Shown here: positions 8,263 through 48,155 of the stretch, piece by piece | Layout of the letters: each line of letters begins with the position of its first letter | Position numbering within the stretch: position 1 is the stretch's first letter | NCBI GenBank assembly: GCA_045604405.1 | Contig: JAZUNZ010000048.1 | Location: 25,939-89,938, forward strand | DNA from: Clostridia bacterium | GTDB lineage: Bacteria; Bacillota; Clostridia; TANB77; CAG-465 | DNA: 64,000 bases | Direction: 5' to 3' | Notes under the pieces: model-generated | What the model saw: only the letters and a program-made list of their open reading frames with translations | Told to the model about the DNA's origin: nothing | The model's database searches: none | Translations under genes and position numbers: made by a program

Positions 8263-8551
8263 AAATAATTCCTTTCCATAACTAACTATCATAATAATAT
8301 TTAATTGCTTGTTATCATTTCAAATATATTTTTTAGATAGTGAGTGGCAAAGGTGTCACCAAAGTGGCAAAAAGGAAATAACCTTATAATACTTTATGAT
8401 AAGTTATAATACTTTTGTTTTTAAAAAAAATTTCTATATATAATTTTTAGGCGACACTTTTATATAAAAAGTGGCACAAATTTTTGCAAATCAAAGAACA
8501 AAAAAATATCTAGTAAATCGCGTTTTTACTAGATATTTCAACATTTCTAAA

Positions 8552-8627
8552 TGGTGGGTCATCGGGGACTCGAACCCCGGACCAATAGATTAAGAGTCTA
8601 CTGCTCTACCAACTGAGCTAATGACCC
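8552..8627 (-). tRNA. tRNA-Lys (anticodon CUU), island-borne complete copy
   Basis: 76 nt: gggtcattagctcagttggtagagcagtagaCTCTTAAtctattggtccggggttcgagtccccgatgacccacca. Perfect acceptor stem gggtcat/atgaccc. Anticodon loop CUCUUAA. Encoded CCA. Confidence 0.93.
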
Positions 8628-8655
8628 ATTTATTTTGTAATTTTGGTAAGCAACC

Positions 8656-8695
8656 GATTAAGAGTCTACTGCTCTACCAACTGAGCTAATGTCAC
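8656..8695 (-). pseudogene. Orphan 5' half of the host tRNA-Lys(CUU), forming the attL junction
   Basis: The minus strand reads gtgacattagctcagttggtagagcagtagactcttaatc (tRNA positions 1-40) and then breaks into unrelated ggttgcttacc. The acceptor strand gtgacat pairs with atgtcgc of the fragment at 1547-1593. Confidence 0.85.
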
Positions 8696-8709
8696 TTTTG
8701 ACAACATTT

Positions 8710-8738
8710 ATTATAACAAATATATCTTAATTTGTAAA
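8710..8738 (-). promoter_or_regulatory. Sigma-A-type promoter of the (now split) host tRNA-Lys gene
   Basis: The minus strand reads TTTACA-17 nt-TATAAT, ending 14 nt upstream of the 5'-half fragment. No promoter fits in the 28-nt gap before the island tRNA. Confidence 0.6.
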
Positions 8739-8809
8739 GTTAATAAGAATAAAAAAATAAAAATAACAATAAAAAGAAGCCGATTTTTTAAAATCGACTT
8801 CCTTAGGAA

Positions 8810-9265
8810 TTAGCAAGGCCTTGCTTTGAGAGTGTGTAGCTCAGCCAAAAGAGATTCTTTTGAAGGAGCACCTTCTTCTTCGATAAAATAGTCATCGTAA
8901 GATGCAATCTGAAACTCAATCTCTTCTATCCGGGATTTTTCTTCTTCAATCTTGGCTTGTTCTGCACGCATAGCAGCTAATTTCTTCTCCCTCCGAACAT
9001 CTAAAGGCTTTTCCCAACGTCTCGTACGTTGAGCTTTACCCTTGGGGAAGCAATTAATAGCTTTATTGGCAGCTCTTTCGGCAGTTATATCATCTACAAG
9101 CTCAGTATCCTCAAGAATTTCCAATATCGAATTGGAAATGAATTCTGGAGAAACATGCCACATAACGGCCATAGATTCAAAAGTTGCGAACTTGTTATAA
9201 GCGTAGTACTCAGCAAGATGGCGTTTAAATTGTTTGCTTACTTTGTGTTGGGTTTGTCTTGACAT
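8810..9265 (-). CDS. Hypothetical protein (charged, coiled-coil C-terminal half)
   Basis: 151-aa ORF. SD ggagga upstream of the ATG at 9265. By eye it is more GC-rich than its neighbours. No family recognised. Confidence 0.6.
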   Translation of the reverse strand: MSRQTQHKVSKQFKRHLAEYYAYNKFATFESMAVMWHVSPEFISNSILEILEDTELVDDITAERAANKAINCFPKGKAQRTRRWEKPLDVRREKKLAAMRAEQAKIEEEKSRIEEIEFQIASYDDYFIEEEGAPSKESLLAELHTLKARPC

Positions 9266-9461
9266 TTTTAAATCCTCCGTTTAATCAATTCAGTTTAATT
9301 GATTTAATAAATTTTAAATACAACTATATTATACCACAATTTGAAAAAGATTACAACAGTTTGAGATTACATAATTCAATAAAAATAATGTGCTGAGTTG
9401 AAATAATAAATTCCATGTGATATAATTCTAACGGTTACAATAAAATGTAATGGGTGAGATT

Positions 9462-10373
9462 ATGAATGTAAAATATACAGAAATTGAAAAATATATAGAA
9501 AGTACTAAGGTAAAATATGATGAACCAATGAGCAAATACACTACGTTAAAAGTAGGTGGAAATGCAGATGTTTTAGTATTACCGGAAAGTGTTCAAGATG
9601 TGGAAAACGTCCTTAAATATGCTAAAGAAAATAGCATTCAAGTTACTGTTATTGGTAATGGAAGTAAGCTTTTAGTGCTAGACAAAGGTATACGTGGAAT
9701 TGTTATAAAATTTGGAAGTAAATTTGCAAATATAGAGGTAGAAGGAGAATATATAACAGTATCTGCTGGAATGACATTACCACGTCTTGCAATTATAGCC
9801 AAAGACAATGCATTATCTGGATTAGAGTTTGCAGCAGGAATTCCAGGAAATGTTGGTGGAGCTGTATACATGAATGCAGGAGCATATGGCTCAGAAATGG
9901 CAAATATAGTAGAGGAAGTTACATATATAGATGAAGACTTAAATATTAAAACTATATCTGGAAAAGAGTGTAATTTCGGTTACAGAAGAAGCATGTTCAG
10001 AGGAACAAAAAATGTTATATTATCTGCAAAATTGAAATTAAATAGAGGTAATAAAGAAGAAATAGAAAGTTTAATGAAAGCAAATAATGAGGCAAGAAAG
10101 TCTAAACAGCCTTTAGAACATCCAAATGCAGGAAGTACTTTTAAAAGACCAGAGGGATATTTTGTAGGTAAACTAATTGATGATTTAGGATTAAAAGGAT
10201 ATAAAGTAGGAGATGCTCAAATTTCTACTAAGCACTCAGGATTTATTGTAAATACTGGAAAAGCGACAGCAAGTGATGTTTTAAAATTAATAAATCATGT
10301 AAAAGAGAAAGTACTTAAGGCAAATGGAGTAAAGCTTGAGGAAGAAATTATAGTACTTGGAGAAGGAGAATAA
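9462..10373 (+). CDS. murB: UDP-N-acetylenolpyruvoylglucosamine reductase
   Basis: FAD-binding PCMH-type N-terminus (TLKVGGNADVLVLPES) and C-terminal AGSTFKRP / ISTKHSGFIVN motifs. The ATG at 9462 has SD ggtgag; the ATG at 9450 has none. Confidence 0.92.
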   Translation: MNVKYTEIEKYIESTKVKYDEPMSKYTTLKVGGNADVLVLPESVQDVENVLKYAKENSIQVTVIGNGSKLLVLDKGIRGIVIKFGSKFANIEVEGEYITVSAGMTLPRLAIIAKDNALSGLEFAAGIPGNVGGAVYMNAGAYGSEMANIVEEVTYIDEDLNIKTISGKECNFGYRRSMFRGTKNVILSAKLKLNRGNKEEIESLMKANNEARKSKQPLEHPNAGSTFKRPEGYFVGKLIDDLGLKGYKVGDAQISTKHSGFIVNTGKATASDVLKLINHVKEKVLKANGVKLEEEIIVLGEGE

Positions 10374-10375
10374 AA

Positions 10376-11749
10376 ATGAAAACTTTTTTAGAATGGTTGA
10401 AACCAGGGGTAAGAGTAAAAAGATATATTATATTACAGCTTATATCAATAGGAACACTTATATATTCAATAATTTCTCTTACAATGAGAGATATACTTAC
10501 ACCTAATATACTTATTGCATATATAGCACTAATTACATTATCGTTATTTTTAACAGTATATTCGTTCTTTTTAGCACAAAGAAACATATTAAAAGTAACG
10601 TTAAAGAATATGGCATACAAGGATAAAAATATAGACATACGTAGATTGTTATATACAGAATCAATGCTTAAAAAAGGACCAAAAGTAGTAATAATTGGTG
10701 GTGGAAAGGGACTTTCTAACATATTAAGTGGACTTAAAGAATTTACCTCTAATATAACATCAATAGTTGCGGCTTTTGATGATGGTGGCTCAACAGGAAA
10801 ACTTATGGAGGAAATGGATATATTACCACCAGGAGATATACGTAGAAGCTTAATAGCACTTTCTTCATCAGAACCATGTATGGAAAAGCTATTAGGATAT
10901 AGATTTAAAAACGGAGCAGTGGACAATCATTCTTTAGGAAATTTAATGATAGTAGCGATGACAGAAATAATGGGTGGATTTGCACCAGCTATTGAAAAAC
11001 TATCTAGTATATTTAATGTAAAAGGGAAAATACTTCCAGTATCACTAGATAAAGCTAAACTGTGCGCAGGCCTTGAAAATGGTGAAATAGTTGTTGGAGA
11101 AGACAACATACGTCCAAGAGTATTAGAATCAAAAAGTAGAATAAAGCAAATATTCTTAAAGGATGTAGAAGCAAATCCAGCACCAGGTGTAATAGAAGCA
11201 ATAAATGAGGCAGATATCATAGTACTAGGACCAGGTAGTTTATATACAAGTGTAATTTGCAACTTACTAGTAAATGAAGTAGGTAAAGCTATAATACAAA
11301 GTAAAGCTAAGAAAGTAATGATATCTAACCTTATGAATGAACCAGGAGAAACATCAGGATATACATTAGCAAGACATGTAAATGAAATAGAGAGATATCT
11401 AGGCAAACATGTTTTAGATTATCTTATTGCAAACAATGGTGAAATAACTGAGGATATGATATATGATTTCAACCAAGGGGCATCAACTCCTGTAACGTTA
11501 GATTTACCAAATATACAAAATAGAACAATATCTGTTATAGAAGAAGATCTAGTTATAACTGCACCAAATGCTATACTTCATGATAACCTAAGAGTTGCTG
11601 AAATTATTATAGAAATAGCTAAAACTAAAAGAATGGGCTCTTTAAATTTGCTTAAAAGTAAAAATACAAAGAAAACAAAAAAGAGTGTAGCTGGCAAGGA
11701 AGTAAAAATTAAAAAAGACAACAATGCTTCAGAAAAACAAAGCAAGTAG
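10376..11749 (+). CDS. yvcK: YvcK/CofD-family gluconeogenesis and morphology factor with N-terminal TM extension and Lys-rich tail
   Basis: Core VVIIGGGKGLSNILSGLK .. DDGGSTGKL .. IVLGPGSLYTSV is typical of UPF0052/YvcK. About 90 aa of N-terminal hydrophobic segments and about 40 aa of C-terminal K-rich tail are extra. Confidence 0.85.
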   Translation: MKTFLEWLKPGVRVKRYIILQLISIGTLIYSIISLTMRDILTPNILIAYIALITLSLFLTVYSFFLAQRNILKVTLKNMAYKDKNIDIRRLLYTESMLKKGPKVVIIGGGKGLSNILSGLKEFTSNITSIVAAFDDGGSTGKLMEEMDILPPGDIRRSLIALSSSEPCMEKLLGYRFKNGAVDNHSLGNLMIVAMTEIMGGFAPAIEKLSSIFNVKGKILPVSLDKAKLCAGLENGEIVVGEDNIRPRVLESKSRIKQIFLKDVEANPAPGVIEAINEADIIVLGPGSLYTSVICNLLVNEVGKAIIQSKAKKVMISNLMNEPGETSGYTLARHVNEIERYLGKHVLDYLIANNGEITEDMIYDFNQGASTPVTLDLPNIQNRTISVIEEDLVITAPNAILHDNLRVAEIIIEIAKTKRMGSLNLLKSKNTKKTKKSVAGKEVKIKKDNNASEKQSK

Positions 11750-11774
11750 AAAACCTTAATTTAGGGGTGAATAA

Positions 11775-13598
11775 ATGATATACAAAAGAGTAAATAAAAG
11801 TTTAAAATCTGATTCTAAAGTAGAATATATAGAATCAAATAATCAAGGAATATATATAAATACTTCAATTACGGGTGCAAATTTTGCACCCTATCATGGT
11901 ATATACATATATCAAGAACCTAAAAAAGATGTTGTGTATTTATCTAAGATGATAGAATGTATACAAATAGGCCATGATAGATTCGATATATTGGATGTAA
12001 AAACAAGTGAAACTGTACATGGTGGTGTGCAGTTTTTAACAGAGTTTACAAACGTACCAGTTCCTACTTACACATATGATGTAAATGGTTGTATTATAGA
12101 GAAAAAATATAAACTTCATCCAACAGAAAAAATACTTTGTATAGATTATAAGATAACGAATAATACAGGAAAGCCAGTAAGATTTACCGCCAGTCCTTGT
12201 GTTACAAATAGAGGATTGTTTTCAAGCAAAAGACAAAGTGACATGAAGTTTACAAGTCTTGTTACAGCAAGTGCTACTAAGATAGCATTAAGTATTAGCG
12301 AGAAAAAGGATTTATATATTAAATCTTCAAACATGAAATACGATAAACATGAAAAATATCTGTGTGGTGTAAATTGTGATTTCGAAACAAGTGATGGAGC
12401 ATCAAAAACATACGTAGAGGATTTGTTTATACCAGGAGTTTTTGAAGGAAATATAAAGACAAGTAACACAAATACATTTAGTATATTTGTATCTATGGAA
12501 GATATAGATGTAAAACAGCACAAGTCAAATGACATAGAAGTAGATATAAAGAAACGAGACGAATATAGGTATGGCTCAATAGATAAAAGTTATCATGAGT
12601 TGTTTGGACTTGCAAAAACAGCATATAATCTACACTATATAGACAAAGAAAAGAAAAGACTAGTGCTTTTAGAATCAGTACCAGCAATCTATGATACAGA
12701 TGAATATGTAAAAAACATGATAGTATCTATAGAGGGAAATTATCTGCTACTTAAAAGATATAAAGAGGCACATAAGATATTAGAAAGCATGATGCTAAAG
12801 CTTAAAGATGAAACATATAAATTAAGTGATTTGGATAGATGCGAAGCAATGCTACTGTTTATAGAAGCGCTAAATAGATATCTTATGGAGGCAGATCCTG
12901 GCATAGAAGAAATTAGAGAGTTTTATGAATATATAAAAAGCAATATATATGAGTATTTAGATAGAAAAAACAAAGAGGCTTATGCAGATCAAGATTTTCT
13001 ACTTAAAGTAAATGGTAAAAAGTATATAAAGATAAACTCTCTTTGGTATAATGCACTAAGAATATTTGTAGATCTTGCGGACAAGTTCCATGAAGAATCT
13101 GAATTTATATATACTATATCTGAATCTTTAAGAGATAACATTGTAACAAGCTTTTGGGATGAAGCAAAAAGTGTATTAAAATTTGAAATAGAGGAGGCAT
13201 CATATTCTACTTTTGATATGATATATTCTTTAAGCTTATCCTATCCAGTACTTAAAGATAGTTCAATGTCTATGAAATTAATGGATACAGCTTTTAAAGA
13301 GTTATATACAGCTTATGGTATGAGGCTTGGAAATGTAAATGCAAAACAATATGACGGTTATGTATATCCTCATCTTATGGTACATTTCTTAAAGGCGAAC
13401 TTAAGACAAATGGGAGTAACTAGAGCAAGTCAAAAGCTTGCATATAACTTAGTAAAAGAAGTGCTAGGGGAGATAGGCAAAAATACTGTTGGAACAGTAA
13501 AATATAGATATAATGAAAAATTAAAAAAAGCATATGGTTATGAGATAAGTGCAATTACAAATGCCGAGCTTATACGCGCTTTTGACATGTTAACTTAA
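11775..13598 (+). CDS. Glycogen-debranching-enzyme-like (GDE_N/GDE_C, alpha/alpha-barrel) protein, divergent
   Basis: 607 aa. N-terminal NFAPYHGIYI resembles the RYHGLL motif of bacterial GDE N-domains. The C-terminal half is helical-repeat-like. I could not find the canonical WGRD catalytic motif. Confidence 0.45.
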   Translation: MIYKRVNKSLKSDSKVEYIESNNQGIYINTSITGANFAPYHGIYIYQEPKKDVVYLSKMIECIQIGHDRFDILDVKTSETVHGGVQFLTEFTNVPVPTYTYDVNGCIIEKKYKLHPTEKILCIDYKITNNTGKPVRFTASPCVTNRGLFSSKRQSDMKFTSLVTASATKIALSISEKKDLYIKSSNMKYDKHEKYLCGVNCDFETSDGASKTYVEDLFIPGVFEGNIKTSNTNTFSIFVSMEDIDVKQHKSNDIEVDIKKRDEYRYGSIDKSYHELFGLAKTAYNLHYIDKEKKRLVLLESVPAIYDTDEYVKNMIVSIEGNYLLLKRYKEAHKILESMMLKLKDETYKLSDLDRCEAMLLFIEALNRYLMEADPGIEEIREFYEYIKSNIYEYLDRKNKEAYADQDFLLKVNGKKYIKINSLWYNALRIFVDLADKFHEESEFIYTISESLRDNIVTSFWDEAKSVLKFEIEEASYSTFDMIYSLSLSYPVLKDSSMSMKLMDTAFKELYTAYGMRLGNVNAKQYDGYVYPHLMVHFLKANLRQMGVTRASQKLAYNLVKEVLGEIGKNTVGTVKYRYNEKLKKAYGYEISAITNAELIRAFDMLT

Positions 13599-38296: not shown

Positions 38297-40900
38297 TTGG
38301 AAAATATACAAGATATTAAAATGAAAACTATTTCAGGAGTAATATGGAAAATGTGTGAGCGTGTTACTTCTCAATTAGTAAGCTTCGTTGTTTCCGTAAT
38401 ATTAGCACGTATTTTATTACCAGAAGATTATGGAATAGTTGCAATAGTTACATTATTCATAACAATAGCGGATGCTTTCGTTAATAATGGATTGGGTTCA
38501 GCGCTTATTCAAAAGAAAAATGCAGATGAAAAAGATTTTTCTACTATGTTTTATGCAGGTATTATACTTGCTCTAATATTATATGGTATTTTATATTTCA
38601 TAGCGCCATTTATATCTAGCGTCTATGCAAAGACAGATATAACATTGGTTTTGAGAGTAATGGGCATAAGGTTACCTATAGCAGCAATGAATTCAATTCA
38701 ACAAGCATATGTTGCAAGAAAAATGATATATAAAAAATTTTTCCTATCAACATTATTAGGTACTGTAATTTCAGGAATTGTAGGAATAATTATGGCCATA
38801 ACTGGATATGAAGTATGGGCATTAGTATCGCAATATTTATTAAATACGATAATTAGCACAATTGTATTATTTATAACTGTTAGTTGGAGACCAAAGTTGT
38901 TTTTTTCAGTCGATAGATTTAAAAAAATGTTTTCATTTGGCTCTAAAGTAATGTTAAGTGGGGTAATTGGTACAATTTTTGATCAATTAAAAAGTTTTTT
39001 TATTGGTTTTAAATATACAGCTACAGACTTAGCATATTATAACAGGGGAGAACAAATACCATCATTATTATATAACAATATAAATACGACTTTTGAAGCG
39101 GTATTATTTCCTGCGATTTCTAAAATGCAGGATAACAAGTTAGCAGTGAAAAATTCATTAAGAAGAATGATAAAGCTTACAAGTTTTATAATTGTACCTA
39201 TTATGTTTGGACTAGCTGTAGTGGCAGAATCGTTAGTAGAAGTTATTCTTACAGATAAATGGTTAGAGAGTGTTCCATATCTTGTAATTGTTTGCTTACA
39301 ACAATGTATATCTGTTATTAGTAATGTTAATTTACAAGCGTTAAAAGCAATTGGAAGAAGTGATGTATTATTAAAATTAGAAATGGTAAAAAAACCATTA
39401 TTTTTACTATGTATTATAATAGGTATGCAAATTAGTCCGTTGGCAATAGTTGTAGCAAATTTCATTTATGGTTTTTTTGCACTAATTATAAATAGTGCGC
39501 CAAATAAAAAGTTGTTAAATTATAGTATGAAAGAACAATTAAAAGATGTTAAACCAGCTATACTATTATCATGCATAATGGTAATAGGATGTATTTTAAT
39601 ACAATATATAAAAATGTCAGTAATAGTAACATTAATAATGCAAGTTTTAACTGGGGTAATGATATATATTGGTTTGTCAATAATATTTAAAGTAGAGGAG
39701 TTTTATTATATTTTAGATATAATAAGGAATATATCAGTGTTAGATAGAATATGGGTAAAAATAAAAAGAATTTTAAAAAAAATGAGCTCATATTTCTTTA
39801 CATCAAATATTTTTAAAATAAAGAATAATAAAGTTGTTTTTGATAATTTTTGCGGGAAAGGATATGGATGTAATCCTAAATATATATGTGAAGAAATAAT
39901 TAGACAAAATTTGGATTTTGATTTAGTATGGTTAGTTAATGACATGAATGAAGAAATGCCTAAACAAGTAAGAAAGGTAAAGTATAATACTTTAAAGGCT
40001 TTTTATGAATTGGCGACTGCTAAAATATGGATTGATAATGTAAGAAATTATAAAGGCATCGGAAAGAAAAAAGGACAATACTATATACAAACATGGCATG
40101 GCGCAATAGGTTTGAAATCAATAGAAAAAGATGCAGCAAGTACATTGTCAGAAAGTTATATACAAGAAGCTAAATATGACAGTACTTTAACGGATTTAAT
40201 TATTACTAATAACAAAGCACAAGAAAAATACATAAAGAAGTATTTTTGGTATGATGGAGAGGTCGCTTGTTGTGGCACACCTAGATGTGATATTATATAT
40301 AAACAAGATGAAAAAATAATAGAAAAAGTATACGATTATTTTAAAATCGATAAGAGTAAAAAAATTGTATTATATGTTCCAACATTTAGAGCAGATGAAA
40401 CTACAGACGTTTATAAATTTGACAATATTAAATGTTGTGAAGTTATGAAAGAAAAATTCAACAATGAATTTGTAATGTTGATTAGATTGCACCCAAATGT
40501 TTCTAATAAGTGTAATTATATTGAATATAACGATAGCATAATCAATGCGACACCTTATCCGGATGTACAAGAATTAATTGCAGCTTCGGATGTGATAATT
40601 TCTGATTATTCTAGTATTCCTTTTGAAGCGGCATTGGTTTATAAACCATCCTTCTTGCTAGCTAAGGATTATGACGGATATAGTAAAAGTGAAAGAAAGT
40701 TTATTTATACATTAGAAGAGGTGCCTTTTCAATTAGCTAGAACCGAGGAAGAACTGTATAAAAATATATTGAATTTTTCAAAACAAGAATATGAAGAAAA
40801 ATGCAAAGAGTTTTATAATAAAATAGGCATAGTTAATAATTCGGAATCTGCGAAAGATATCGTGAATATAATAAAGAAAGAGATGAGAAAACATGAATAG
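38297..40900 (+). CDS. Fusion protein: Wzx/MOP-family flippase (N-terminal ~480 aa) plus CDP-glycerol glycerophosphotransferase (TagB/TagF family, C-terminal ~380 aa)
   Basis: Single 867-aa ORF. The N-terminal half has ~12-14 TM helices of polysaccharide-biosynthesis-protein type. The C-terminal half carries YYIQTWHGAIGLK, LYVPTFRAD, IRLHPNV and SDYSSIPFEAAL, which are TagF-family signatures. TTG start with SD ggaggg. Confidence 0.8.
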   Translation: MENIQDIKMKTISGVIWKMCERVTSQLVSFVVSVILARILLPEDYGIVAIVTLFITIADAFVNNGLGSALIQKKNADEKDFSTMFYAGIILALILYGILYFIAPFISSVYAKTDITLVLRVMGIRLPIAAMNSIQQAYVARKMIYKKFFLSTLLGTVISGIVGIIMAITGYEVWALVSQYLLNTIISTIVLFITVSWRPKLFFSVDRFKKMFSFGSKVMLSGVIGTIFDQLKSFFIGFKYTATDLAYYNRGEQIPSLLYNNINTTFEAVLFPAISKMQDNKLAVKNSLRRMIKLTSFIIVPIMFGLAVVAESLVEVILTDKWLESVPYLVIVCLQQCISVISNVNLQALKAIGRSDVLLKLEMVKKPLFLLCIIIGMQISPLAIVVANFIYGFFALIINSAPNKKLLNYSMKEQLKDVKPAILLSCIMVIGCILIQYIKMSVIVTLIMQVLTGVMIYIGLSIIFKVEEFYYILDIIRNISVLDRIWVKIKRILKKMSSYFFTSNIFKIKNNKVVFDNFCGKGYGCNPKYICEEIIRQNLDFDLVWLVNDMNEEMPKQVRKVKYNTLKAFYELATAKIWIDNVRNYKGIGKKKGQYYIQTWHGAIGLKSIEKDAASTLSESYIQEAKYDSTLTDLIITNNKAQEKYIKKYFWYDGEVACCGTPRCDIIYKQDEKIIEKVYDYFKIDKSKKIVLYVPTFRADETTDVYKFDNIKCCEVMKEKFNNEFVMLIRLHPNVSNKCNYIEYNDSIINATPYPDVQELIAASDVIISDYSSIPFEAALVYKPSFLLAKDYDGYSKSERKFIYTLEEVPFQLARTEEELYKNILNFSKQEYEEKCKEFYNKIGIVNNSESAKDIVNIIKKEMRKHE

Positions 40901-41798
40901 AAAAACAACATTTAAAATGTTAAAAAGCGGAGAACTTTTTTTTAAGGTGAAGGAAAAATTAAGCGTTTGTAATATAAATAATGAAATTATAAAAAATAAG
41001 CAACTACAATACAGAGAGTACTGTAGATTAAATAGAAAATACAAGAAAACAATAAATAGTATTAAAAAGAGAAGTAAAGATATTAATACAATCCCTTCGA
41101 ATAAAGTTTGGGTTTTCTGGCTTCAAGGTGAGAAAAATGCGCCAGAATTAGTGAAAAGATGTATAGACTCAACAAGAAGAGCATTTAAGGATAGAGAAGT
41201 CATCGTGTTAGATAAAGATAATTATAAAGAATATGTTGATTTTCCGGATTATATAGAAGAAAAATTTGCTAAGGGGATAATTCCGTTTGCACATTTCTCA
41301 GACTTAATAAGAATTGAATTGTTAGCAAAGCATGGAGGAATATGGTGCGATGCAACATTATATATTACAGGTGAAATACCAGATTATGTAAAAAATGCTA
41401 ATTTGTTTGTATTTAAAAACATAAACTTAGATAGAACAGATGAAGAAATAATAGTTGCATCAAACTGGTTCTTATCAGCATATGCAAACAATAATATAAT
41501 TGTTGCAACAAGGGACTTGCTATTTGAATATTGGAAGCATGAAAGATTTTTAACAAATTATTTCAATTTTCATATTTTGTTTAAAATAGTTGTAGACATA
41601 TATAAGGAAGAGTGGGAAAATATTCCGACATTTACAAATGTAAACCCTCATATTTTACAATTTGAACTGTTTGATGAATTTAGCGAAGAAAGATTTGAAC
41701 AAATAAAGTCAATTTGTTTTATGCACAAATTAAATAGACATATTGAAAATAAAGATTTAGAAAGAAATAATTTTTATAATTATATTTTAAAAAACTAG
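40893..41798 (+). CDS. Capsular polysaccharide synthesis protein family glycosyltransferase (Caps_synth / OCH1-like)
   Basis: VWVFWLQGEKNAPELVKRCIDS..FAHFSDLIRIELLAKHGGIWCDATLY matches my recollection of the PF05704 pattern. Confidence 0.7.
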   Translation: MNRKTTFKMLKSGELFFKVKEKLSVCNINNEIIKNKQLQYREYCRLNRKYKKTINSIKKRSKDINTIPSNKVWVFWLQGEKNAPELVKRCIDSTRRAFKDREVIVLDKDNYKEYVDFPDYIEEKFAKGIIPFAHFSDLIRIELLAKHGGIWCDATLYITGEIPDYVKNANLFVFKNINLDRTDEEIIVASNWFLSAYANNNIIVATRDLLFEYWKHERFLTNYFNFHILFKIVVDIYKEEWENIPTFTNVNPHILQFELFDEFSEERFEQIKSICFMHKLNRHIENKDLERNNFYNYILKN

Positions 41799-41864
41799 AA
41801 ACATTGTATTAGTTATATCTTGTTTATTTATGAATAAGATATAAAAAGCTAATGGAGGATAATT

Positions 41865-43370
41865 ATGAACCCGATAAGAAGGAAAAATAATATAACCAAT
41901 AACGAACAATCTAGAAGAGAAAACAAAATTAACATAAGTAAAAAGGGTATATTGAGATTAATAGTAAAAATACTCTCAATAGTATTTGCTGTAATGACTG
42001 GTGTGTTTTTTGGTAAAATTGTAGGATTTAATATGTTGCCTACTGTATATTTAGTAATATTGGCGGTAGCATTGTTATTAATTAGCTTTTTTATAGCTTT
42101 TATGCTTTGGAAAAAGAAAGGCATAGCATCAAAGATAATTATAGCTATACTTTCAATCGCAATTATATTTGTATATAGCTATGCAATAAATTACATGTCT
42201 GCTACAGAAACATTTATAAAAGAGATGACAACAGAGATTGAGGAGACAGAAGACTATTATGTCATAACTTTGAAAAATAGCAAATATGCAAGTATGGAAA
42301 AATTAGAAAATATAAACATACATACATTTATGTCAGGAGAAGATTTTACTGATGTTAAAGAGGACGTATTATCTAAGGCTAAAGTATATTTTAAAGATGA
42401 TGAAAGTTTAAGTGAACTTGCCACTAATTTGTTAAACAAGAAAATATATGCAATATTAGTTAGTAATTCGCAATATGTAATGTTAGTAGATGAGAATGCA
42501 GAATTTGAGACCAAAACAACAATAATAAATACTTCAACACATAAAATAAAGAAACTAGAAGAAGCAGAATCTAATAAACAAGAAAAATATACAATAAATA
42601 CAGGTTCATTTAATATATATGTAAGTGGTATTGATACAGCTGGAAGAATATCAAATGTATCAAGAAGTGATGCAAATATTATAGTTACAGTAAATCTAGA
42701 TACTCATAAAATTTTACTTACATCAATACCAAGAGATTATTATGTTAAATTGCATAGTAAAAAGAAATTAGACAAACTAACTCATGCAGGTATATATGGA
42801 ATAAAAGAAACATATAAAACAGTAGAAGATTTATTAGATATAGATATAAATTATTATGTAAGAGTTAACTTTACGACATTACAAAAACTAGTAGATGCTT
42901 TAGGCGGAATATATGTATATTCTGATTATACATTTACAAGTAGTGAAGGTTACCAATTTTATAAAGGAAGAAATTATTTAAACGGAGAAGAAGCGTTAGC
43001 ATTCAGCCGTGAAAGATCTGCATTTGCCTCTGGAGACAGACAAAGAGGACTTAATCAACAGGCTGTTATAAAAGGCATAATGGATAAAGCATTATCACCA
43101 ACAATATTAAACAAATATACCAAAATATTAAAATCATTATCTGGCACTTTCCAAACAAATATTTCAAATGACGAAATTAGTAGCATAGTAAGGGGCCAAT
43201 TAGAAAACATGTCTGGTTGGGATTTTGAAAGCAACTCGTTAGATGGTGAGGGCACATATGGAAAAACATATTCAGGTGGTTCAACACAACTTTATGTTAT
43301 GAAACCTAATGAAACATCTGTTGTTAATGCAATGAAAAAAATAAACCAAGTTTTAGAAGAAAAAAATTAA
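41865..43370 (+). CDS. LytR-CpsA-Psr (LCP) family glycopolymer-to-peptidoglycan transferase
   Basis: N-terminal TMs. FNIYVSGIDTAGRISNVSRSDANIIVTVNLDTHKILLTSIPRDYYV..ALAFSRER. Confidence 0.9.
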   Translation: MNPIRRKNNITNNEQSRRENKINISKKGILRLIVKILSIVFAVMTGVFFGKIVGFNMLPTVYLVILAVALLLISFFIAFMLWKKKGIASKIIIAILSIAIIFVYSYAINYMSATETFIKEMTTEIEETEDYYVITLKNSKYASMEKLENINIHTFMSGEDFTDVKEDVLSKAKVYFKDDESLSELATNLLNKKIYAILVSNSQYVMLVDENAEFETKTTIINTSTHKIKKLEEAESNKQEKYTINTGSFNIYVSGIDTAGRISNVSRSDANIIVTVNLDTHKILLTSIPRDYYVKLHSKKKLDKLTHAGIYGIKETYKTVEDLLDIDINYYVRVNFTTLQKLVDALGGIYVYSDYTFTSSEGYQFYKGRNYLNGEEALAFSRERSAFASGDRQRGLNQQAVIKGIMDKALSPTILNKYTKILKSLSGTFQTNISNDEISSIVRGQLENMSGWDFESNSLDGEGTYGKTYSGGSTQLYVMKPNETSVVNAMKKINQVLEEKN

Positions 43371-43488
43371 TAATATTATTAAATATAATTAGAAAAGAAT
43401 GTATAAGAAAAATACAAGGTATGTATAATCCCTTGTATTTTTTTCAAAAAATGCTAAAATACTAATTACGAATGAAATGGGAGAAAAT

Positions 43489-43797
43489 ATGTTTAAATTA
43501 CATTCAGAATATAAACCAACAGGAGATCAACCACAGGCTATAAAAGAGCTTGTTGAGGGAATAAAGAATGGAGATAGTGCACAAACATTACTTGGAGTTA
43601 CAGGTAGTGGTAAGACTTTTACTATAGCTAATGTTATAAGCAATGTAAATAAGCCAACAATTATAATGGCACATAATAAAACACTTGCAGGACAACTTTA
43701 TTCGGAATTTAAAGAAATGTTCCCTGAAAACGCGGTTGAGTATTTTATATCATATTATAAAAATGGCTTAAAAACTGTATTATTTAGTACCATTTAA
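43489..43797 (+). pseudogene. uvrB: Truncated 5' end of uvrB (first ~90 codons, then unrelated tail)
   Basis: [62 protein letters not shown], then [12 protein letters not shown]. Homology to the full gene at 46200 stops at 43758. Confidence 0.9.
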
Positions 43798-44027
43798 TAT
43801 TATTTAATCCTTAAAGAACAAATTAAATAATACAAGATAACATTTAATAACACTAAAATATAAAAAATAAATTTGTGACTTTTATTCGTTCCTAGGCAAA
43901 AAGTTTACTATTAACCAAGTGATTTTATGATGAACAACCTGTACATAAATACGGGTTGTTTATATTTGGATTGTCGAAATGTGTCACGTTTTGCGATGAA
44001 AAGTATAAATATATAAGAAATAAGCGT

Positions 44028-44056
44028 TGACAAACAAATGTTTGAAATATATAATA
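44028..44056 (+). promoter_or_regulatory. Consensus sigma-A promoter for the KilA-N gene
   Basis: TTGACA-17 nt-TATAAT, a perfect match. It lies ~160 nt upstream of the ATG at 44217. The leader contains the palindrome cacatgttcc-attta-ggaacatgtg (44141-44165). Confidence 0.7.
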
Positions 44057-44216
44057 TGTACAAGTAAATGTAAGAGATTAAACTTTGTTAGTATTTTATA
44101 CAACAAAATGTATTTAATGATGATAAATTTGGTAAAAAACCACATGTTCCATTTAGGAACATGTGTCAATGTATAGTGGTTTATATAATATAGATTTTAT
44201 AAGAGGAGAGAAAGAT

Positions 44217-45104
44217 ATGGATAATAAAATCACAACAATTATGAATGTTAATGAAAACGAAATTAGAGCAATGAGAATTGATAATGAAGATTATATTTCT
44301 TTAACGGATTTAGCAAGATACAAAAATCCTAATGATCCTTCTGATGTGATTAAGAAATGGTTAAGTAATTATGATACAATAGAATTCTTAGGTTTATGGG
44401 AAGAACTTAGTAATGAAGATTTTAATTCGGCGGAATTCGGCCTAATTAAAATAGAAGCGCCTAAGAAATCTTTTACAATGACTCCAAGTCAATGGTGTAC
44501 TCGAGTAAATGCAAAAGGTATCACTTATTCTAAGGGAAAATATAGTATAGGAACATTTGCACATTCTGATATTGCTTTAGAATTTGCATCATGGATAGAT
44601 AATTTATTCAAATTATATTTAATTAAAGAATTTAAGAGATTAAAATACAATGAAAGTTATCAGGCAAAAATAGAATGGTCGGTTAGAAGAAGTTTATCTA
44701 AGACAAATTATAGAATACACACTGATAGTATTAAAGAAAATATTGTTCCTAAGCTTACAGAAAAGCAAAAACAATTTGTATATGCAAATGAAGCGGATGT
44801 TATAAATGTAGCATTGTTTGGAATGACTGCTAAAGAGTGGAGAGAAAGCAATCCCAATTTAGAAGGAAACATTAGAGATTATACGGATATACTTCATTTA
44901 ATTGTATTAAGTAATCTAGAAGTATTAAATGCTAGTATGATTGATAATAATATTTGTCAAAGTGAAAGACTAGAAAAACTGAATATCACAGCAAGAAAAG
45001 AGTTAAGCATATTAGCAAATGATAAAAATATAATTGATATTCAAAAATTAGATGAAAAATACGATAAATCACTAATTGAATCGGGAAAAATAGAAAATAA
45101 TTAA
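44217..45104 (+). CDS. KilA-N domain-containing protein (phage antirepressor-like)
   Basis: N-terminal ..IRAMRIDNEDYISLTDLARYKN..TIEFLGLWEEL..GTFAHSDIALEFASWI fits the KilA-N DNA-binding domain. SD aggagag upstream of the ATG at 44217. Confidence 0.8.
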   Translation: MDNKITTIMNVNENEIRAMRIDNEDYISLTDLARYKNPNDPSDVIKKWLSNYDTIEFLGLWEELSNEDFNSAEFGLIKIEAPKKSFTMTPSQWCTRVNAKGITYSKGKYSIGTFAHSDIALEFASWIDNLFKLYLIKEFKRLKYNESYQAKIEWSVRRSLSKTNYRIHTDSIKENIVPKLTEKQKQFVYANEADVINVALFGMTAKEWRESNPNLEGNIRDYTDILHLIVLSNLEVLNASMIDNNICQSERLEKLNITARKELSILANDKNIIDIQKLDEKYDKSLIESGKIENN

Positions 45105-45249
45105 AATAGAATGGGATACAGGCGGATTTATATGAATACATTATGTTGAAAAAAGCAATAATTGTGGTATAATATATTTACTTTAATTTTTTACCTTGCT
45201 ACTTTTAAGTAGTTTAACATAAAATAATTATTTTAAGGAGAAGAAAAAA

Positions 45250-45852
45250 ATGAAAAATGTATTACTAAATCTTTGGCGGTTTATAGTTGGCTCGGAAGCT
45301 GGATTTTTTGGTGAGGGAAATGAGCAATGGTACTATTTTTTGTCCCTTGCAATTAACGTAATGCTTGTGGCATGGCTTAAGCCAGAAGTAGCGGTGTGGT
45401 TTATCTTGCTTATGGTTATCCACTTTGTAATGGTATGTATTTATGGTTATAATGACTTAAGTGATTACGGTTCAGAATATTCGTATATATATTTTGGTAT
45501 TCATTTAATTCTAGGGATAATTGCAATTATTGTAAGTCCTTTTTGGGCATTAATAACAACTGCTATTTCTGTTGCAGCATTCTTTATGGCGCCAGATTGT
45601 ACGGGCAATAACATATTGTTGCGGAAAAAATCATATAGCAAATTAGCGTTGATTTTCAATACTATAATTTTTGCAGCTTTTGTTACTGTCGCAGTTATGC
45701 TTCCGATTGCACTTTGGTTAAGAATTTTGATAATTATAGGTGTGATGATTGTTCATCCTATAATTGACTATTTTGCTGGTGAATGTATAATTATTTCCGA
45801 TGTTACTTATGAGGCATGGGATAACATCAGACAATATAGAAAGAAAAAGTAA
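45250..45852 (+). CDS. Polytopic membrane protein, unknown function
   Basis: 200 aa with about 5 hydrophobic helices. Own promoter TTGAAA-16-TGgTATAAT at 45146-45173. SD aaggaga. Confidence 0.7.
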   Translation: MKNVLLNLWRFIVGSEAGFFGEGNEQWYYFLSLAINVMLVAWLKPEVAVWFILLMVIHFVMVCIYGYNDLSDYGSEYSYIYFGIHLILGIIAIIVSPFWALITTAISVAAFFMAPDCTGNNILLRKKSYSKLALIFNTIIFAAFVTVAVMLPIALWLRILIIIGVMIVHPIIDYFAGECIIISDVTYEAWDNIRQYRKKK

Positions 45853-45858
45853 TTGTTT

Positions 45859-45895
45859 AAAACGACCTGCTGACTTGTAATCAGCAGGTCGTTTT
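45859..45895 (+). terminator. Rho-independent terminator
   Basis: 15-bp stem aaaacgacctgctga / tcagcaggtcgtttt with loop cttgtaa. Confidence 0.85.
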
Positions 45896-46199
45896 GTGTG
45901 TAAAGTACATGTTTGTCTAATTATTTATGTTATGACTAGTACTTGTATTTTGATACAAAAAATGTTATTATTTTAAAGAGTTTTATGACTTTGTATTATC
46001 CCATTTTACCTAGTGTTATCTAGTGCTCACGGGGTGTTAAAAAAATAAATTTGTGACTTTTATTCGTTCCTGGGGAAAAAGTTCACTATTAACCAATAGG
46101 GAAAGGTGTTTGGGAACGAACTTGGGAACGAATTTTTCCAAAAAACTGGTTGAAAGTAAACCTTTTTTACTATGGAATTTTACAAAAAAGGAGAGAAAA

Positions 46200-48155
46200 A
46201 TGTTCAAACTTCATTCAAATTTTAAACCAACAGGAGACCAACCAGAAGCAATAAAAACTTTGGTGGAAGGTGTTAAAAGTGGCTTAAATGCTCAAACTTT
46301 GCTAGGTGTCACAGGTAGTGGAAAAACATTTACAATAGCAAACGTTATCAAAGAAGTAAATAAACCAACTATAATTATGTGTCACAATAAGACACTAGCT
46401 GGGCAGTTGTATTCGGAATTCAAGGAGTTCTTCCCTGAAAACGCGGTTGAGTATTTTATATCGTATTATGATTATTTCCAACCGGAAGCATATATTGCTG
46501 CAACTGATACATATATAGAAAAAGATAGTAGCATAAATGATGAGATAGATAGACTTCGTCATTCAGCTACTGCAGCTGTTTTTGAAAGAAAAGACGTAAT
46601 AATAGTTGCATCTGTATCTGCTATATATTCATTGGGTTCTCCAGACGAATATAAAGGACATACTTTGTCTATAAGACCAGGCATGAAGAAAACTCGTGAA
46701 GAGGTCATGGAAAAATTAATAGAAATGCAATATACAAGAAGTGATATAGAATTCTTGCGAGGTACATTTAGAGTTAAAGGAGATATAATAGATGTATACG
46801 AAGTTGGAAACAATGAACATGCACTAAGAATAGAATTTTTTGGAGATGAAATAGAAAAGCTTACATTTATTGAGCCAATAAGTGGTAAAACAATAGCAAG
46901 AATAGATCATGAACTTATATATCCAAAATCTCACTATGTAACATCTAAGGATAAAGTAAATGAAGCCATATATAAAATAAAGAAAGAATTAGATGAAAGA
47001 CTAGCAGAACTAAGGAGTCAAGATAAGATAGTTGAAGCATATCGCTTAGAACAACGTGTTAATTTTGATATCGAAATGTTGCAAGAAACAGGATTTTGTC
47101 AAGGAATAGAAAACTATTCTGTATATATGTCAGATAGAGAACGTGGAAGTACGCCATATTGTCTTTTCGACTTCTTAGGCGATGACTTTTTAACTGTTGT
47201 AGATGAATCGCATGTAACAATTCCTCAAATAGGAGGAATGTATAATGGAGATAGAGCAAGAAAAGAGTCCTTAGTAGAGCACGGATTTAGACTCCCATCA
47301 GCAATGGATAATAGACCTTTAAACTTTAAAGAATGGGAAGCAAGAGTTCCGCAAGTAATATTTGTAAGCGCAACACCAGGAAATTATGAAATAGATAGGT
47401 CTACTAAGGTTGTAGAACAAATTATTCGTCCAACAGGACTTTTAGACCCTAAGATTGTTGTAAAAGAGACTTCAAGTCAAATTGATGATTTAATTTCTAA
47501 TATTAATGAAAGAGTAGAAAAAGGCGAAAGAGTCCTTGTTACTACTTTAACTAAAAAAATGTCTGAGGAGCTTACAAGTTATCTTGAAAATCAAGGAATT
47601 AAAGTAAGATACATGCATTCGGATATAAAAGCACTAGATAGATTAGAAATAATAAGAGATTTAAGACTTGGAAAATTTGATGTATTAGTAGGAATCAACC
47701 TGTTAAGAGAAGGATTAGATATTCCAGAAGTATCTTTAGTAGCTATATTAGATGCAGATAAAGAGGGCTTCTTAAGAAGTGAACGCTCGCTAATACAGAC
47801 AATAGGTAGAGCGGCAAGAAATTCTCAAGGTCAAGTTATAATGTACGCAGACGAATTGACTGATTCTATGGAAAGAGCAATAAAGGAAACAAATAGAAGA
47901 AGAAAGATACAAGAAGCATATAATGAGAAGCACGGAATTGTTCCTAAGAGTATTGTAAAAGATGTTCGCGATAGTATTAAAGCTGTGTTTACCGAAGAAG
48001 AAGCTCCAAAGGTAGAATTAAATCATGAAGAAACATTAGAGGAAACTGTAGAGAGACTTACTGAAGAGATGTTTACATATGCAAGAGCGTATGAATTTGA
48101 AAAGGCGGCGGTGCTACGAGACCTAATAAATGAGCTGAAAAACGCAAATTCTTAA
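46200..48155 (+). CDS. uvrB: Excinuclease ABC subunit B
   Basis: Full-length 651 aa: [10 protein letters not shown] Walker A, DESH, beta-hairpin region, helicase motifs, and the C-terminal UVR domain ([18 protein letters not shown]). The ATG at 46200 with SD aaggagag is used. The 46053 extension of the track ORF is spurious. Confidence 0.95.

Follow-up and report, generated by a model that had tools for sequence, protein, structure and literature searches.

The Duplicated 5′ End of uvrB

In the window, i.e., the whole 64-kb stretch of Clostridia bacterium DNA analysed here, codons 1–90 of the repair gene uvrB were found twice, at positions 43489–43758 and 46200–46469. The segment of 2711 bp that begins after the left copy and ends with the right one (43759–46469) very probably belongs, judging from its sequence and from that of its relatives, to a family of site-specific integrative elements that occur in gut Firmicutes and have their attachment (att) site in uvrB codons 88–90; it has no integrase of its own. 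The features of the locus are listed in Table 1. An earlier examination of the same DNA by eye (the sequence-only reading) had reported the doubled codons with a nucleotide identity of about 75–80%, and had described the left copy as following the terminator of an LCP gene and then breaking off. This description was accurate. A repeat finder returned 43485–43758 against 46196–46469 (274 nt, 76% identity, spacing of 2711 bp), 205 of the 270 nucleotides and 78 of the 90 amino acids (87%) were identical between the two copies, the hairpin terminator was present, and the open reading frame of the left copy extended past the break to a stop at 43797.

The mismatches between the copies fell on codon positions 1, 2 and 3 in the proportion 11/7/47. 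This corresponded to a dN of 0.12 and a saturated dS of 2.7 (dN/dS of 0.045), which indicates that the two copies had a long separate evolution, each as a functional gene in a lineage of its own. Both copies terminated in the same exact block of 32 nt (TTCCCTGAAAACGCGGTTGAGTATTTTATATC), at 43727–43758 and 46438–46469. A run of this length was obtained in only 0.2% of the trials (P = 0.002) when the places of the mismatches were shuffled and their number per codon position was kept. To the sequence-only reading, the block looked like a recombination core. The crossover region does lie within it, but strand exchange by a tyrosine recombinase would involve only a few bases, near the 3′ end of the block. 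The left stub showed neither a stop codon nor a frameshift and was changed at 3 of 57 conserved positions, exactly as the working copy (3 of 57). As the stub is undecayed, the insertion must be recent relative to the divergence of the copies, and much younger than the split from the related locus L002.

Relatives were collected by their UvrB protein, with one genome scanned per species, which gave 80 loci (here and below, L numbers designate loci). The closest were 76–78% identical and all belonged to uncultured gut Clostridia; the host part of the window uvrB was itself 76–78% identical in amino acids to L001–L003. The left copy shared 80, 78.5 and 74% of its nucleotides with the uvrB 5′ ends of the relatives L001–L003, versus 76, 73 and 73% for the right copy, and at the protein level the right copy was marginally nearer to L001 and L002 than the left one. 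The host DNA to the left of the insertion (40893–43370) was part of a surface-polysaccharide cluster encoding a Caps_synth glycosyltransferase and an LCP family protein. No LCP homologue was found near uvrB in any of the 80 related loci, and the uvrB neighbourhood is therefore not conserved in the group.

Table 1. Features of the uvrB locus in the window, in order of position.
Feature	Position	Strand	Remarks
Hairpin terminator of the upstream LCP (LytR_cpsA_psr) gene, host DNA	43408–43442	+	Inverted repeat with 15-nt arms, 93% complementary; Pfam PF03816
Left copy: probable original uvrB 5′ end of the host (codons 1–90), cut by the insertion	43489–43758	+	About 80% identical to the L158 left copy, as is the host uvrB body
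Putative attL core	43727–43758	+	32-nt block identical to 46438–46469; P = 0.002; family-wide break at the same codons
Left arm	43759–43861	+	Three ATTTA(G/A)T repeats with 10-bp spacing (43782–43808); three ATAAYAYNN 9-mers (43827–43855)
Left 57-nt repeat (D2L)	43862–43918	+	Holds the family motif AAATTTGTGAC-TTTT-ATTCGTTCC; 9-mer at 43884–43892
Terminator-like hairpin after the left arm	43930–43963	+	Would halt read-through from the truncated uvrB
Perfect sigma-70 consensus promoter of the KilA-N gene	44027–44055	+	TTGACA-17-TATAAT, 12/12; conserved in L158
Cargo gene 1, KilA-N domain protein, 295 aa	44217–45104	+	Pfam PF04383, E 3.6e-17; alternative GTG start at 44163
Promoter-like site of cargo gene 2	45146–45173	+	TTGAAA-16-TATAAT with TG, 11/12
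Cargo gene 2, multi-pass membrane protein, 200 aa	45250–45852	+	Three long hydrophobic blocks, about 5–6 membrane spans (hydropathy)
Intrinsic terminator after cargo gene 2	45859–45895	+	Perfect 15-nt inverted repeat
Right arm, part upstream of the motif	45940–46039	+	Left-arm 9-mers inverted at 45960–45968, 45991–45999 and 46011–46019; 87–92% identical to L158
Right 57-nt repeat (D2R)	46040–46096	+	Family motif; 9-mer ATTCGTTCC at 46062–46070
Two inverted copies of the motif 9-mer (GGGAACGAAC, GGGAACGAAT) between motif and uvrB ribosome-binding site	46112–46133	+	Putative integrase arm sites or operator
Right copy: probable element-borne surrogate uvrB 5′ end	46200–46469	+	Ends in the putative attR core 46438–46469; in-frame fusion to the host gene; by analogy with L152/L153/L155
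Host part of uvrB, codon 91 to stop	46470–48155	+	Pfam UvrB_inter, Helicase_C, UvrB, UVR

Arms, Repeats and Cargo of the Element

A second direct repeat, overlooked in the sequence-only reading, was found inside the first one. Its two copies (57 nt, 95% identity, 43862–43918 and 46040–46096) lie about 104 bp inside each uvrB copy and bracket the cargo. Each holds a motif that proved to be characteristic of the family (see below) and that was not found upstream of the left uvrB copy (43489). The left arm, between the left uvrB copy and the first repeat, was homologous to the segment that follows the break in L082, L085, L089, L092, L123 and others. The right arm contained TGTTATCTAGTG, related to the TGTTATTTAGT repeats of integrase-bearing relatives. 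The idea that the region before the right repeat represents a degenerate core followed by a copy of the left arm found no support, as only short inverted 9-mers were shared.

The KilA-N gene behind a perfect consensus promoter (12/12 at 44027–44055; Pfam E 3.6e-17), the membrane protein with about five spans (5–6 by hydropathy, 45250–45852) and the lack of a recombinase between 43759 and 46199, all put forward in the sequence-only reading, were recovered in the present analysis. The KilA-N protein matched PDC-S22, a defence candidate of PADLOC, over its full length (E 8e-112, residues 7–278 against 5–276 of the 281 positions of the profile) and also matched PHROG 2657, a transcriptional regulator; more than 8000 homologues were found. 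Membership in PDC-S22 makes it a member of a candidate defence family only. The 200-aa product of the second cargo gene had no family match in Pfam, NCBIfam, PADLOC or PHROGs. No RNA family of Rfam was detected in the element region, and blastn of the element against phage genomes returned only weak matches (65–75%) to the KilA-N gene.

A Family of Elements at the Same Site

Of the 80 uvrB loci, only L049 (Acutalibacteraceae) had the motif; as in the window, it was present there twice and in the same orientation, and L049 was the one locus with a duplication. The layout of L049 was the same: a truncated uvrB broken at the same codons, AAATTTGTGACTTAAATTCGT about 90 bp further on, a single cargo gene with leucine-rich repeats (LRR), the motif again and, about 100 bp on, the full uvrB. 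The possibility that the motif is an ordinary uvrB operator was discarded, since among the 80 loci it was present only in the duplicated one, and since it also occurs downstream of truncated copies.

The family motif was defined as AAATTTGTGAC-N5-ATTCGT, and metagenome contigs were scanned for AAATTTGTGACNTNNATTCGT. This sequence was present in 66 contigs, about 45 of which had a uvrB 5′ end within approximately 150 bp. The motif was located either about 90–110 bp downstream of a truncated copy or about 110–150 bp upstream of a start codon. Approximately 25 contigs, from metagenomes or metagenome-assembled genomes (MAGs), showed the complete succession of a truncated uvrB 5′ end, a conserved arm of about 100 bp, the motif, variable cargo, the motif, a leader of about 110–150 bp and a full uvrB. 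The same break after codons ...EYF(I/V)S and homologous element ends were present in about 25 independent contigs. The segment following the break (left arm) could be aligned in 21 loci from different bacterial families, with a boundary equal within a few bases. On the right, the arm and leader, taken from a point ahead of the motif as far as the start codon, could be aligned in 26 loci. The window grouped with L082 and L085 on the left, and with L086, L148, L152 and L141 on the right. A similar scan of viral contigs returned one chance match, in the coding region of an unrelated contig. The search of other genomes, which had been suggested together with the sequence-only reading, therefore showed that the layout recurs and that relatives with this arrangement carry foreign cargo, so that a local duplication does not account for it.

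Both element ends were visible in L092, L121 and L124, with uvrB copies 4.4, 3.9 and 3.3 kb apart, respectively, in the smaller L136 (1.45 kb), L145 (1.2 kb) and L138 (about 1 kb), and also in L095 and L087. The cargo was variable and mostly co-oriented with uvrB. KilA-N genes were found in the window, L002, L089, L120 and L158, and RhuM genes, which match PADLOC PDC-S05, in L103 and L106 (L085 shares the N-terminus). Other cargo comprised a YhcG/DUF1016 nuclease (L106, L083), HEPN plus Schlafen/AlbA_2 (L124), leucine-rich repeats (L049, L136), lipoproteins (L121), MarR (L098) and BREX BrxL (L148). The cargo of L082, more than 11 kb in all, included beta-lactamase-like, ParA and ParB genes, a 1200-aa SpaA pilin and a sortase.

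Truncated internal uvrB copies with a motif on both sides were present in L090 (256–735), L145 (4753–5988) and L089 (6–975) and, reverse-complemented, in L098 (2047–2557), L106 (4188–4737) and L123 (2285–2820). In L106, cargo was found on both sides of the internal copy, the YhcG nuclease and then RhuM. From their organization, these arrays are probably two or more elements at one site, as tandem accretion would produce.

Integrases of the Larger Relatives

In L086 and L099, the two genes located directly upstream of the right motif encoded tyrosine recombinases of about 400 and 430 aa. The uvrB-proximal one (Int2) possessed Arm-DNA-bind_4, SAM_3 and Phage_integrase domains. Such a pair was found directly upstream of uvrB in L094, L010, L148, L149–151 (Blautia producta), L152–155 and L156–157; in L010, a genome locus, it abutted uvrB and was 47–50% identical. 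Int2 had about 960 relatives at E <= 1e-20, and all those that were fetched belonged to a pair upstream of uvrB (P0001, 99% identity; P0011, 77%; P0035, 71%; P0109, 55%, from Blautia producta). For these proteins, the matches in NCBIfam and PHROGs were limited to generic integrases.

The integrase pair was preceded by a Sigma70_r4-like gene, a MazF/PemK-type toxin gene or a small open reading frame, and a gene of 65–70 aa, with, in most contexts, an HTH_3 gene on the opposite strand. A match of the 65–70-aa gene to HTH_17 (excisionase family) is on record only in L156/L157. L092 possessed both element ends and truncated remnants of both integrases, and would represent a decay intermediate. In L156 (11293–12208), the uvrB call starts at 12208 (495 aa) despite intact codons 1–90 at 11591–11860; this uvrB may be disrupted after its surrogate part.

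The only tyrosine recombinase of the window is encoded far from the element, at 1802–2905 on the minus strand (367 aa, Xer-like); a tRNA gene lies at 8555–8627 on the same strand. This recombinase was 25–27% identical to the family integrases, and its best NCBIfam scores were below the XerC/XerD cut-offs.

Transfer of the 5′ End and of the Elements between Hosts

The most direct view of the boundary was provided by L152, L153 and L155, which share an identical Int2 (P0035) and have different genes downstream of uvrB. Their nucleotide identity was 100% from position −1600 to approximately nucleotide 263 of uvrB (...TACTTTGTTTC) and about 70% thereafter. The element therefore includes the region upstream of uvrB together with the initial 263 nt of the gene, and the crossover takes place at codon 88. 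This is where the 32-nt block of the window ends and where its left copy breaks off. Together with the break point shared by the family and the adjoining integrases, this identity pattern supports the proposal, already made in the sequence-only reading, of an element that integrates inside uvrB and carries a surrogate 5′ end with its upstream region.

L158 contained a close copy of the window element, with a KilA-N protein (P0121) 96% identical to that of the window. The order was the same (truncated uvrB, arm, 57-nt repeat, same promoter, KilA-N gene, second gene, repeat, leader and uvrB), except that an unrelated gene of 119 aa replaced the 200-aa gene. Over the arm, repeat, promoter and KilA-N gene, identity to the window was 93–100% per 60-nt segment and about 96% overall. 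It was only about 0.80 in the left uvrB stub, with a step to 0.93–1.0 from position 43759 of the window, and about 81% in the uvrB body, and both flanks were unrelated. As a copy with about 96% identity exists in a species whose uvrB body is only about 81% identical, the element has spread horizontally. With this host-like divergence from L158, and its slightly greater proximity to the relatives at the nucleotide level, the left copy can be considered as the native one, which answers a question raised with the sequence-only reading. Similarly, L049 and L136 shared an LRR mini-element with 90–100% identity in hosts with uvrB bodies about 65% identical. The host uvrB of L049 thus differs strongly from that of L136 despite the shared mini-element. 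Within L049, the two uvrB 5′ copies (8539–8811 and 9992–10262) appeared by eye near-identical from about codon 11, with an N to I change in the conserved AHNKTL of the stub, and gene conversion between stub and surrogate seems to have occurred.

L002, the closest locus by UvrB, represents a different situation. Its KilA-N gene was only 73% identical to that of the window (75% in a comparison of nucleotides, versus 74% for uvrB). In the region 8900–10001, this gene follows an eight-codon uvrB remnant (ATGTTTAAATTACATTCACAGTTTTAA), itself preceded by TTGACT-17-TATACT and a GAACGCACGTTT box, and is followed by the full uvrB, without motifs and without a second cargo gene. From this organization, it appears to be a fixed deletion derivative in which the KilA-N gene has apparently become part of the uvrB transcription unit. 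In L160 and L161 (8001–8870), the gene for a KilA-N/PDC-S22 protein 90% identical to that of the window was flanked by small helix-turn-helix (HTH) genes upstream and DUF218 downstream, with no uvrB nearby, and this gene therefore probably circulates on other vehicles too.

A Model for the Window Element and Its Alternatives

The comparisons above establish the architecture of the elements, the existence of the family, its site specificity, the travelling 5′ end and the presence of the mini-element in another species. We propose the following scenario. Full-size members of the family (>8–11 kb) would carry two tandem tyrosine recombinases near their right end, the uvrB-proximal one with an arm-type DNA-binding domain, and upstream of them a sigma-70 region-4-like gene, a small HTH gene of the Xis kind and, in many cases, a toxin gene of the MazF type. 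The att site of the element would include a copy of uvrB nucleotides 1–263 and about 150 bp of upstream leader. Upon integration, the crossover would occur at the end of this copy. The own 5′ end of the host would be stranded at the left as a dead 90-codon stub, and the 5′ end and leader of the element would be fused to the rest of the host gene, leaving an intact uvrB that starts in element DNA. The window element would have lost its recombination and transfer genes while retaining the 32-nt cores, the arms with their 9-mers, the motif on either side of the cargo, and two cargo genes, each with its own strong promoter. Its excision and integration would be performed by the integrases of a full-size relative.

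Several observations weigh against this model. Neither a recombinase in 43759–46469 nor a family integrase anywhere in the 64-kb window was found. Exact-sequence look-ups of the LCP, UvrB and KilA-N proteins of the window returned no match, and neither an excised form nor an empty site of the same species was found. No full-size element was recovered that combined intact integrases with a visible left end; a second uvrB 5′ copy upstream of the integrases was not seen within the 10-kb flanks of L010 and L148–L157. Between the window and L158, the right boundary was not sharp, the surrogate 5′ end being about 87% identical and the body about 81%. The surrogate leader (46097–46199) showed no convincing match to a sigma-70 promoter. 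Finally, both 57-nt repeats were hybrid, with a 5′ context like that of the left-arm motifs of L082/L085 and a 3′ context like that of the right-arm motifs of L086/L152. These hybrids are common to the window and L158 (7693–7751 and 9636–9693), and simple integration does not explain them; the repeats themselves point to some exchange between both motifs in an ancestor common to the sub-group.

It is possible, though in our opinion unlikely, that the element is a dead remnant, left after the deletion of its recombination genes, then fixed and vertically inherited, never to move again. The lack of an integrase in the element and in the whole window speaks for it, as do the integrases of L092, decaying in place, and L002, where a KilA-N gene sits at the same place behind an eight-codon stub, without motifs and clearly immobile, with an identity to the window gene equal to that of uvrB. 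Such a relic is difficult to reconcile with the integrase-less copy of L158, about 96% identical in a species with about 81% identity in uvrB and unrelated flanks, or with the LRR mini-element, shared in a similar way by L049 and L136. The att cores are moreover identical over 32 nt, the non-functional left stub is undecayed, and the family repeats are kept in both arms. Homologous recombination is an improbable alternative, in which the cassette would have arrived in a larger fragment (by transformation, conjugation or transduction) with RecA-dependent crossovers in uvrB, the 32-nt block being the longest pairing stretch. The uvrB sequence on both sides could indeed serve as homology arms, and the diffuse right boundary between the window and L158, the near-identical 5′ copies of L049, which indicate gene conversion, and the swap of the second cargo gene without a motif at its left boundary would be in agreement with this mechanism. 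It fits poorly with a left boundary that is the same within a few bases in 21 of 21 loci from different bacterial families, and with the fall of identity at one defined position in L152, L153 and L155, as homologous crossovers would scatter. The left stub of the host is host-like right up to the core, and the mini-elements retain conserved, covarying putative protein-binding repeats which homologous recombination does not need.

Two further scenarios were considered. The presence of two direct copies 2.7 kb apart, with no recombinase in between, might suggest that the 5′ region of uvrB was duplicated locally in tandem, that unrelated genes were then inserted between the copies and that no mobile element targets uvrB. 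The saturation of the synonymous sites together with the conservation of the amino acids (dN/dS of 0.045) excludes such an event, and the same layout exists in many taxa with unrelated cargo and with integrases, so that we give it hardly any credit. The polarity might also be reversed, the right 5′ end being native and the left copy and the DNA that follows having been brought by an element on the left, as the marginally closer similarity of the right copy to L001 and L002 at the protein level could indicate. This is extremely improbable: upstream of the left copy lies an ordinary capsule/LCP cluster closed by a terminator, it is the right copy that the family integrases and the 100%-identical DNA adjoin, and the left copy is closer to L001–L003 at the nucleotide level and shows a host-level, not an element-level, identity to L158.

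Putative Binding Sites and Control of uvrB

The 3′ half of the motif was a 9-mer belonging to one of three classes (ATTCGTTCC, ATTCGTCCC and ATTCGTGTA). In 21 of 28 loci, one or two inverted 9-mers were present between the right motif and the uvrB ribosome-binding site, and their class covaried with that of the motif. The ATAAYAYNN 9-mers of the window left arm recurred in inverted orientation in the right arm (45960–46019). Given the arm-binding domain of Int2, the 9-mers and arm repeats probably correspond to arm-type integrase sites and Xis sites, which they resemble.

The uvrB gene of the window is presumably now transcribed from the element leader. No recognizable damage-response (SOS) box was present upstream of either window copy. 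GAAC-N4-GTTC boxes were observed upstream of uvrB in 6 of 80 native regions and in none of 24 element-borne regions; these boxes are too rare in the clade for a conclusion to be drawn from the LexA/SOS-box comparison between native and surrogate regions. Such a box is present in two native promoters, that of the left copy of L049 and that of the L002 remnant, and is absent from the element-side leaders of these loci, two isolated cases that would speak for a rewiring. It is conceivable that the damage control of uvrB has been rewired by the element. More speculatively, and with doubts on our side, the integrase-less units might be no debris and instead distinct hitchhiking cassettes, often with candidate anti-phage genes (KilA-N/PDC-S22, RhuM/PDC-S05, HEPN with Schlafen), that keep only the att arms, are moved between species by the family integrases and, through the covarying putative binding 9-mers of their leader, place uvrB under the control of the excision proteins, so that nucleotide-excision repair would be tied to the state of the element and not to the damage response of the host.

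In 12–14 related species, uvrB possessed one extra C in the Walker A codons (GGN TCN C GGA AAA ACN), at 10115–10150 in L002, at the same place in L003, L027, L034, L045, L053, L058, L062, L067, L068, L071 and L072, and also, by split tblastn, in L035 and L066. Frame 0 stops about six codons further on and the +1 frame continues as a normal UvrB, the flanking codons varying synonymously in their own frames. These features suggest programmed +1 frameshifting, conserved among the species and located at a rare CGG codon, and not an error or a dead gene. Neither window copy has the extra C, and nothing on it was found in the literature searched.

Implications

The gene uvrB is a universal single-copy repair gene, and the family described here, common in Firmicutes of the human and animal gut, from uncultured Clostridia to Blautia producta, lands at its codon 88. 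Each insertion swaps the uvrB start, the Walker A motif and the upstream region for element DNA, and a mobile element may come to control nucleotide-excision repair. In many genomes, the first 263 nt of uvrB are horizontally acquired, which matters for phylogenetic markers, MAG binning and gene calling. The site is also a hotspot for candidate defence genes, single or arrayed, and offers a convenient place to find new defence systems in gut anaerobes. Finally, the integrase-less mini-elements, some near-identical across species, provide a clean natural case for the trans mobilization of recombinase-less cargo.

Comparison with Known Systems

Cis-mobilizable elements (CIMEs) derive from integrative and conjugative elements (ICEs) or integrative and mobilizable elements (IMEs) and were first defined for the ICESt1/ICESt3-related islands of Streptococcus thermophilus (PMC5704250). 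They lack integration and transfer genes, retain attL and attR, arise by deletion, and are mobilized with or by an element integrating at their att site (accretion) (PMC5704250). By its sequence the window element fits this definition, with only two cargo genes and with both cores and arms of the family. Its left arm aligned with L082, L085, L092 and others. On the right, the arm, the motif and the inverted 9-mers could be aligned with L086, L099, L148 and L152, all of which bear integrases. As would be expected of CIMEs, the relatives include a decay intermediate (L092) and tandem arrays; the window has no array. Mini-elements with neat ends and varied single-gene cargo are numerous, and L092 shows truncated integrases; the mini-elements could equally be deletion derivatives of an ICE or IME or a self-standing class of hitchhikers. 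Unlike CIMEs, the uvrB elements target the 5′ part of uvrB, not the 3′ end of fda or of a tRNA gene, and consequently carry a 263-nt coding surrogate with a leader. Their parent family possesses two integrases, and the transfer of the mini-elements between species is deduced here from sequence comparison.

Two hallmarks of site-specific elements, direct repeats of the att core at both ends and the same insertion point in unrelated hosts, were found. Another, an integrase next to the att site, is missing from the window element and present in L086, L099, L010 and L148–L157. Tyrosine-integrase elements inserted in the 3′ end of guaA, fda, rpsI or rpmG of Firmicutes restore the gene with their own copy. 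They share with the uvrB elements the site-specific insertion, the end repeats, the preservation of the target gene and the integrase beside one att site. The uvrB elements differ in replacing the 5′ end with an unusually long surrogate. What they replace comprises the start codon, the region upstream of it and the Walker A motif, and therefore the initiation of uvrB transcription would pass to the element.

The Tn916-type module consists of an HTH repressor, the sigma-like Orf7, Orf8, Xis and an Int with an N-terminal arm-binding domain. The gene order of the larger uvrB relatives resembles it (HTH_3 on the minus strand, Sigma70_r4-like gene, small or MazF-like gene, 65–70-aa gene and integrases), as does the presence of one arm-binding domain. 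The uvrB family differs by its two integrases and its strict single target, as opposed to semi-random AT-rich sites, and no Tn916 conjugation genes were seen in the recovered parts of the full-size elements. Members of the Tn554 family encode two adjacent tyrosine recombinases, TnpA and TnpB, together with TnpC, and use one chromosomal site in radC; to our knowledge, they carry no surrogate gene end and have no arm-type repeats. The likeness lies in the two tandem tyrosine recombinases and in the single specific site in a DNA-repair-related gene; the sizes of the recombinases differ (about 400 and 430 aa in the uvrB family). Integron cassettes are also comparable, with a short variable cargo, often of one gene, that has a conserved repeat on either side and points in the direction of a conserved gene located downstream. 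An integron cassette array was nevertheless rejected, as there was no IntI (NCBIfam integron-integrase scores were far below the cut-off) and as the motif is a direct repeat with no attC-like imperfect palindrome. An integron-like exchange at the motif was rejected as well, since the motif is not the boundary at which cargo was swapped between the window and L158.

In the literature searched, which did not cover all journals, there was no mention of uvrB as an attachment site, nor was there in the IME review (PMC5704250). The mechanism is conventional, consisting of site-specific recombination by tyrosine integrases and decay to CIMEs, and the novelty appears to lie in the family itself, in the target it uses, the long 5′ surrogate and two integrases it carries, and the numerous mini-elements it comprises.

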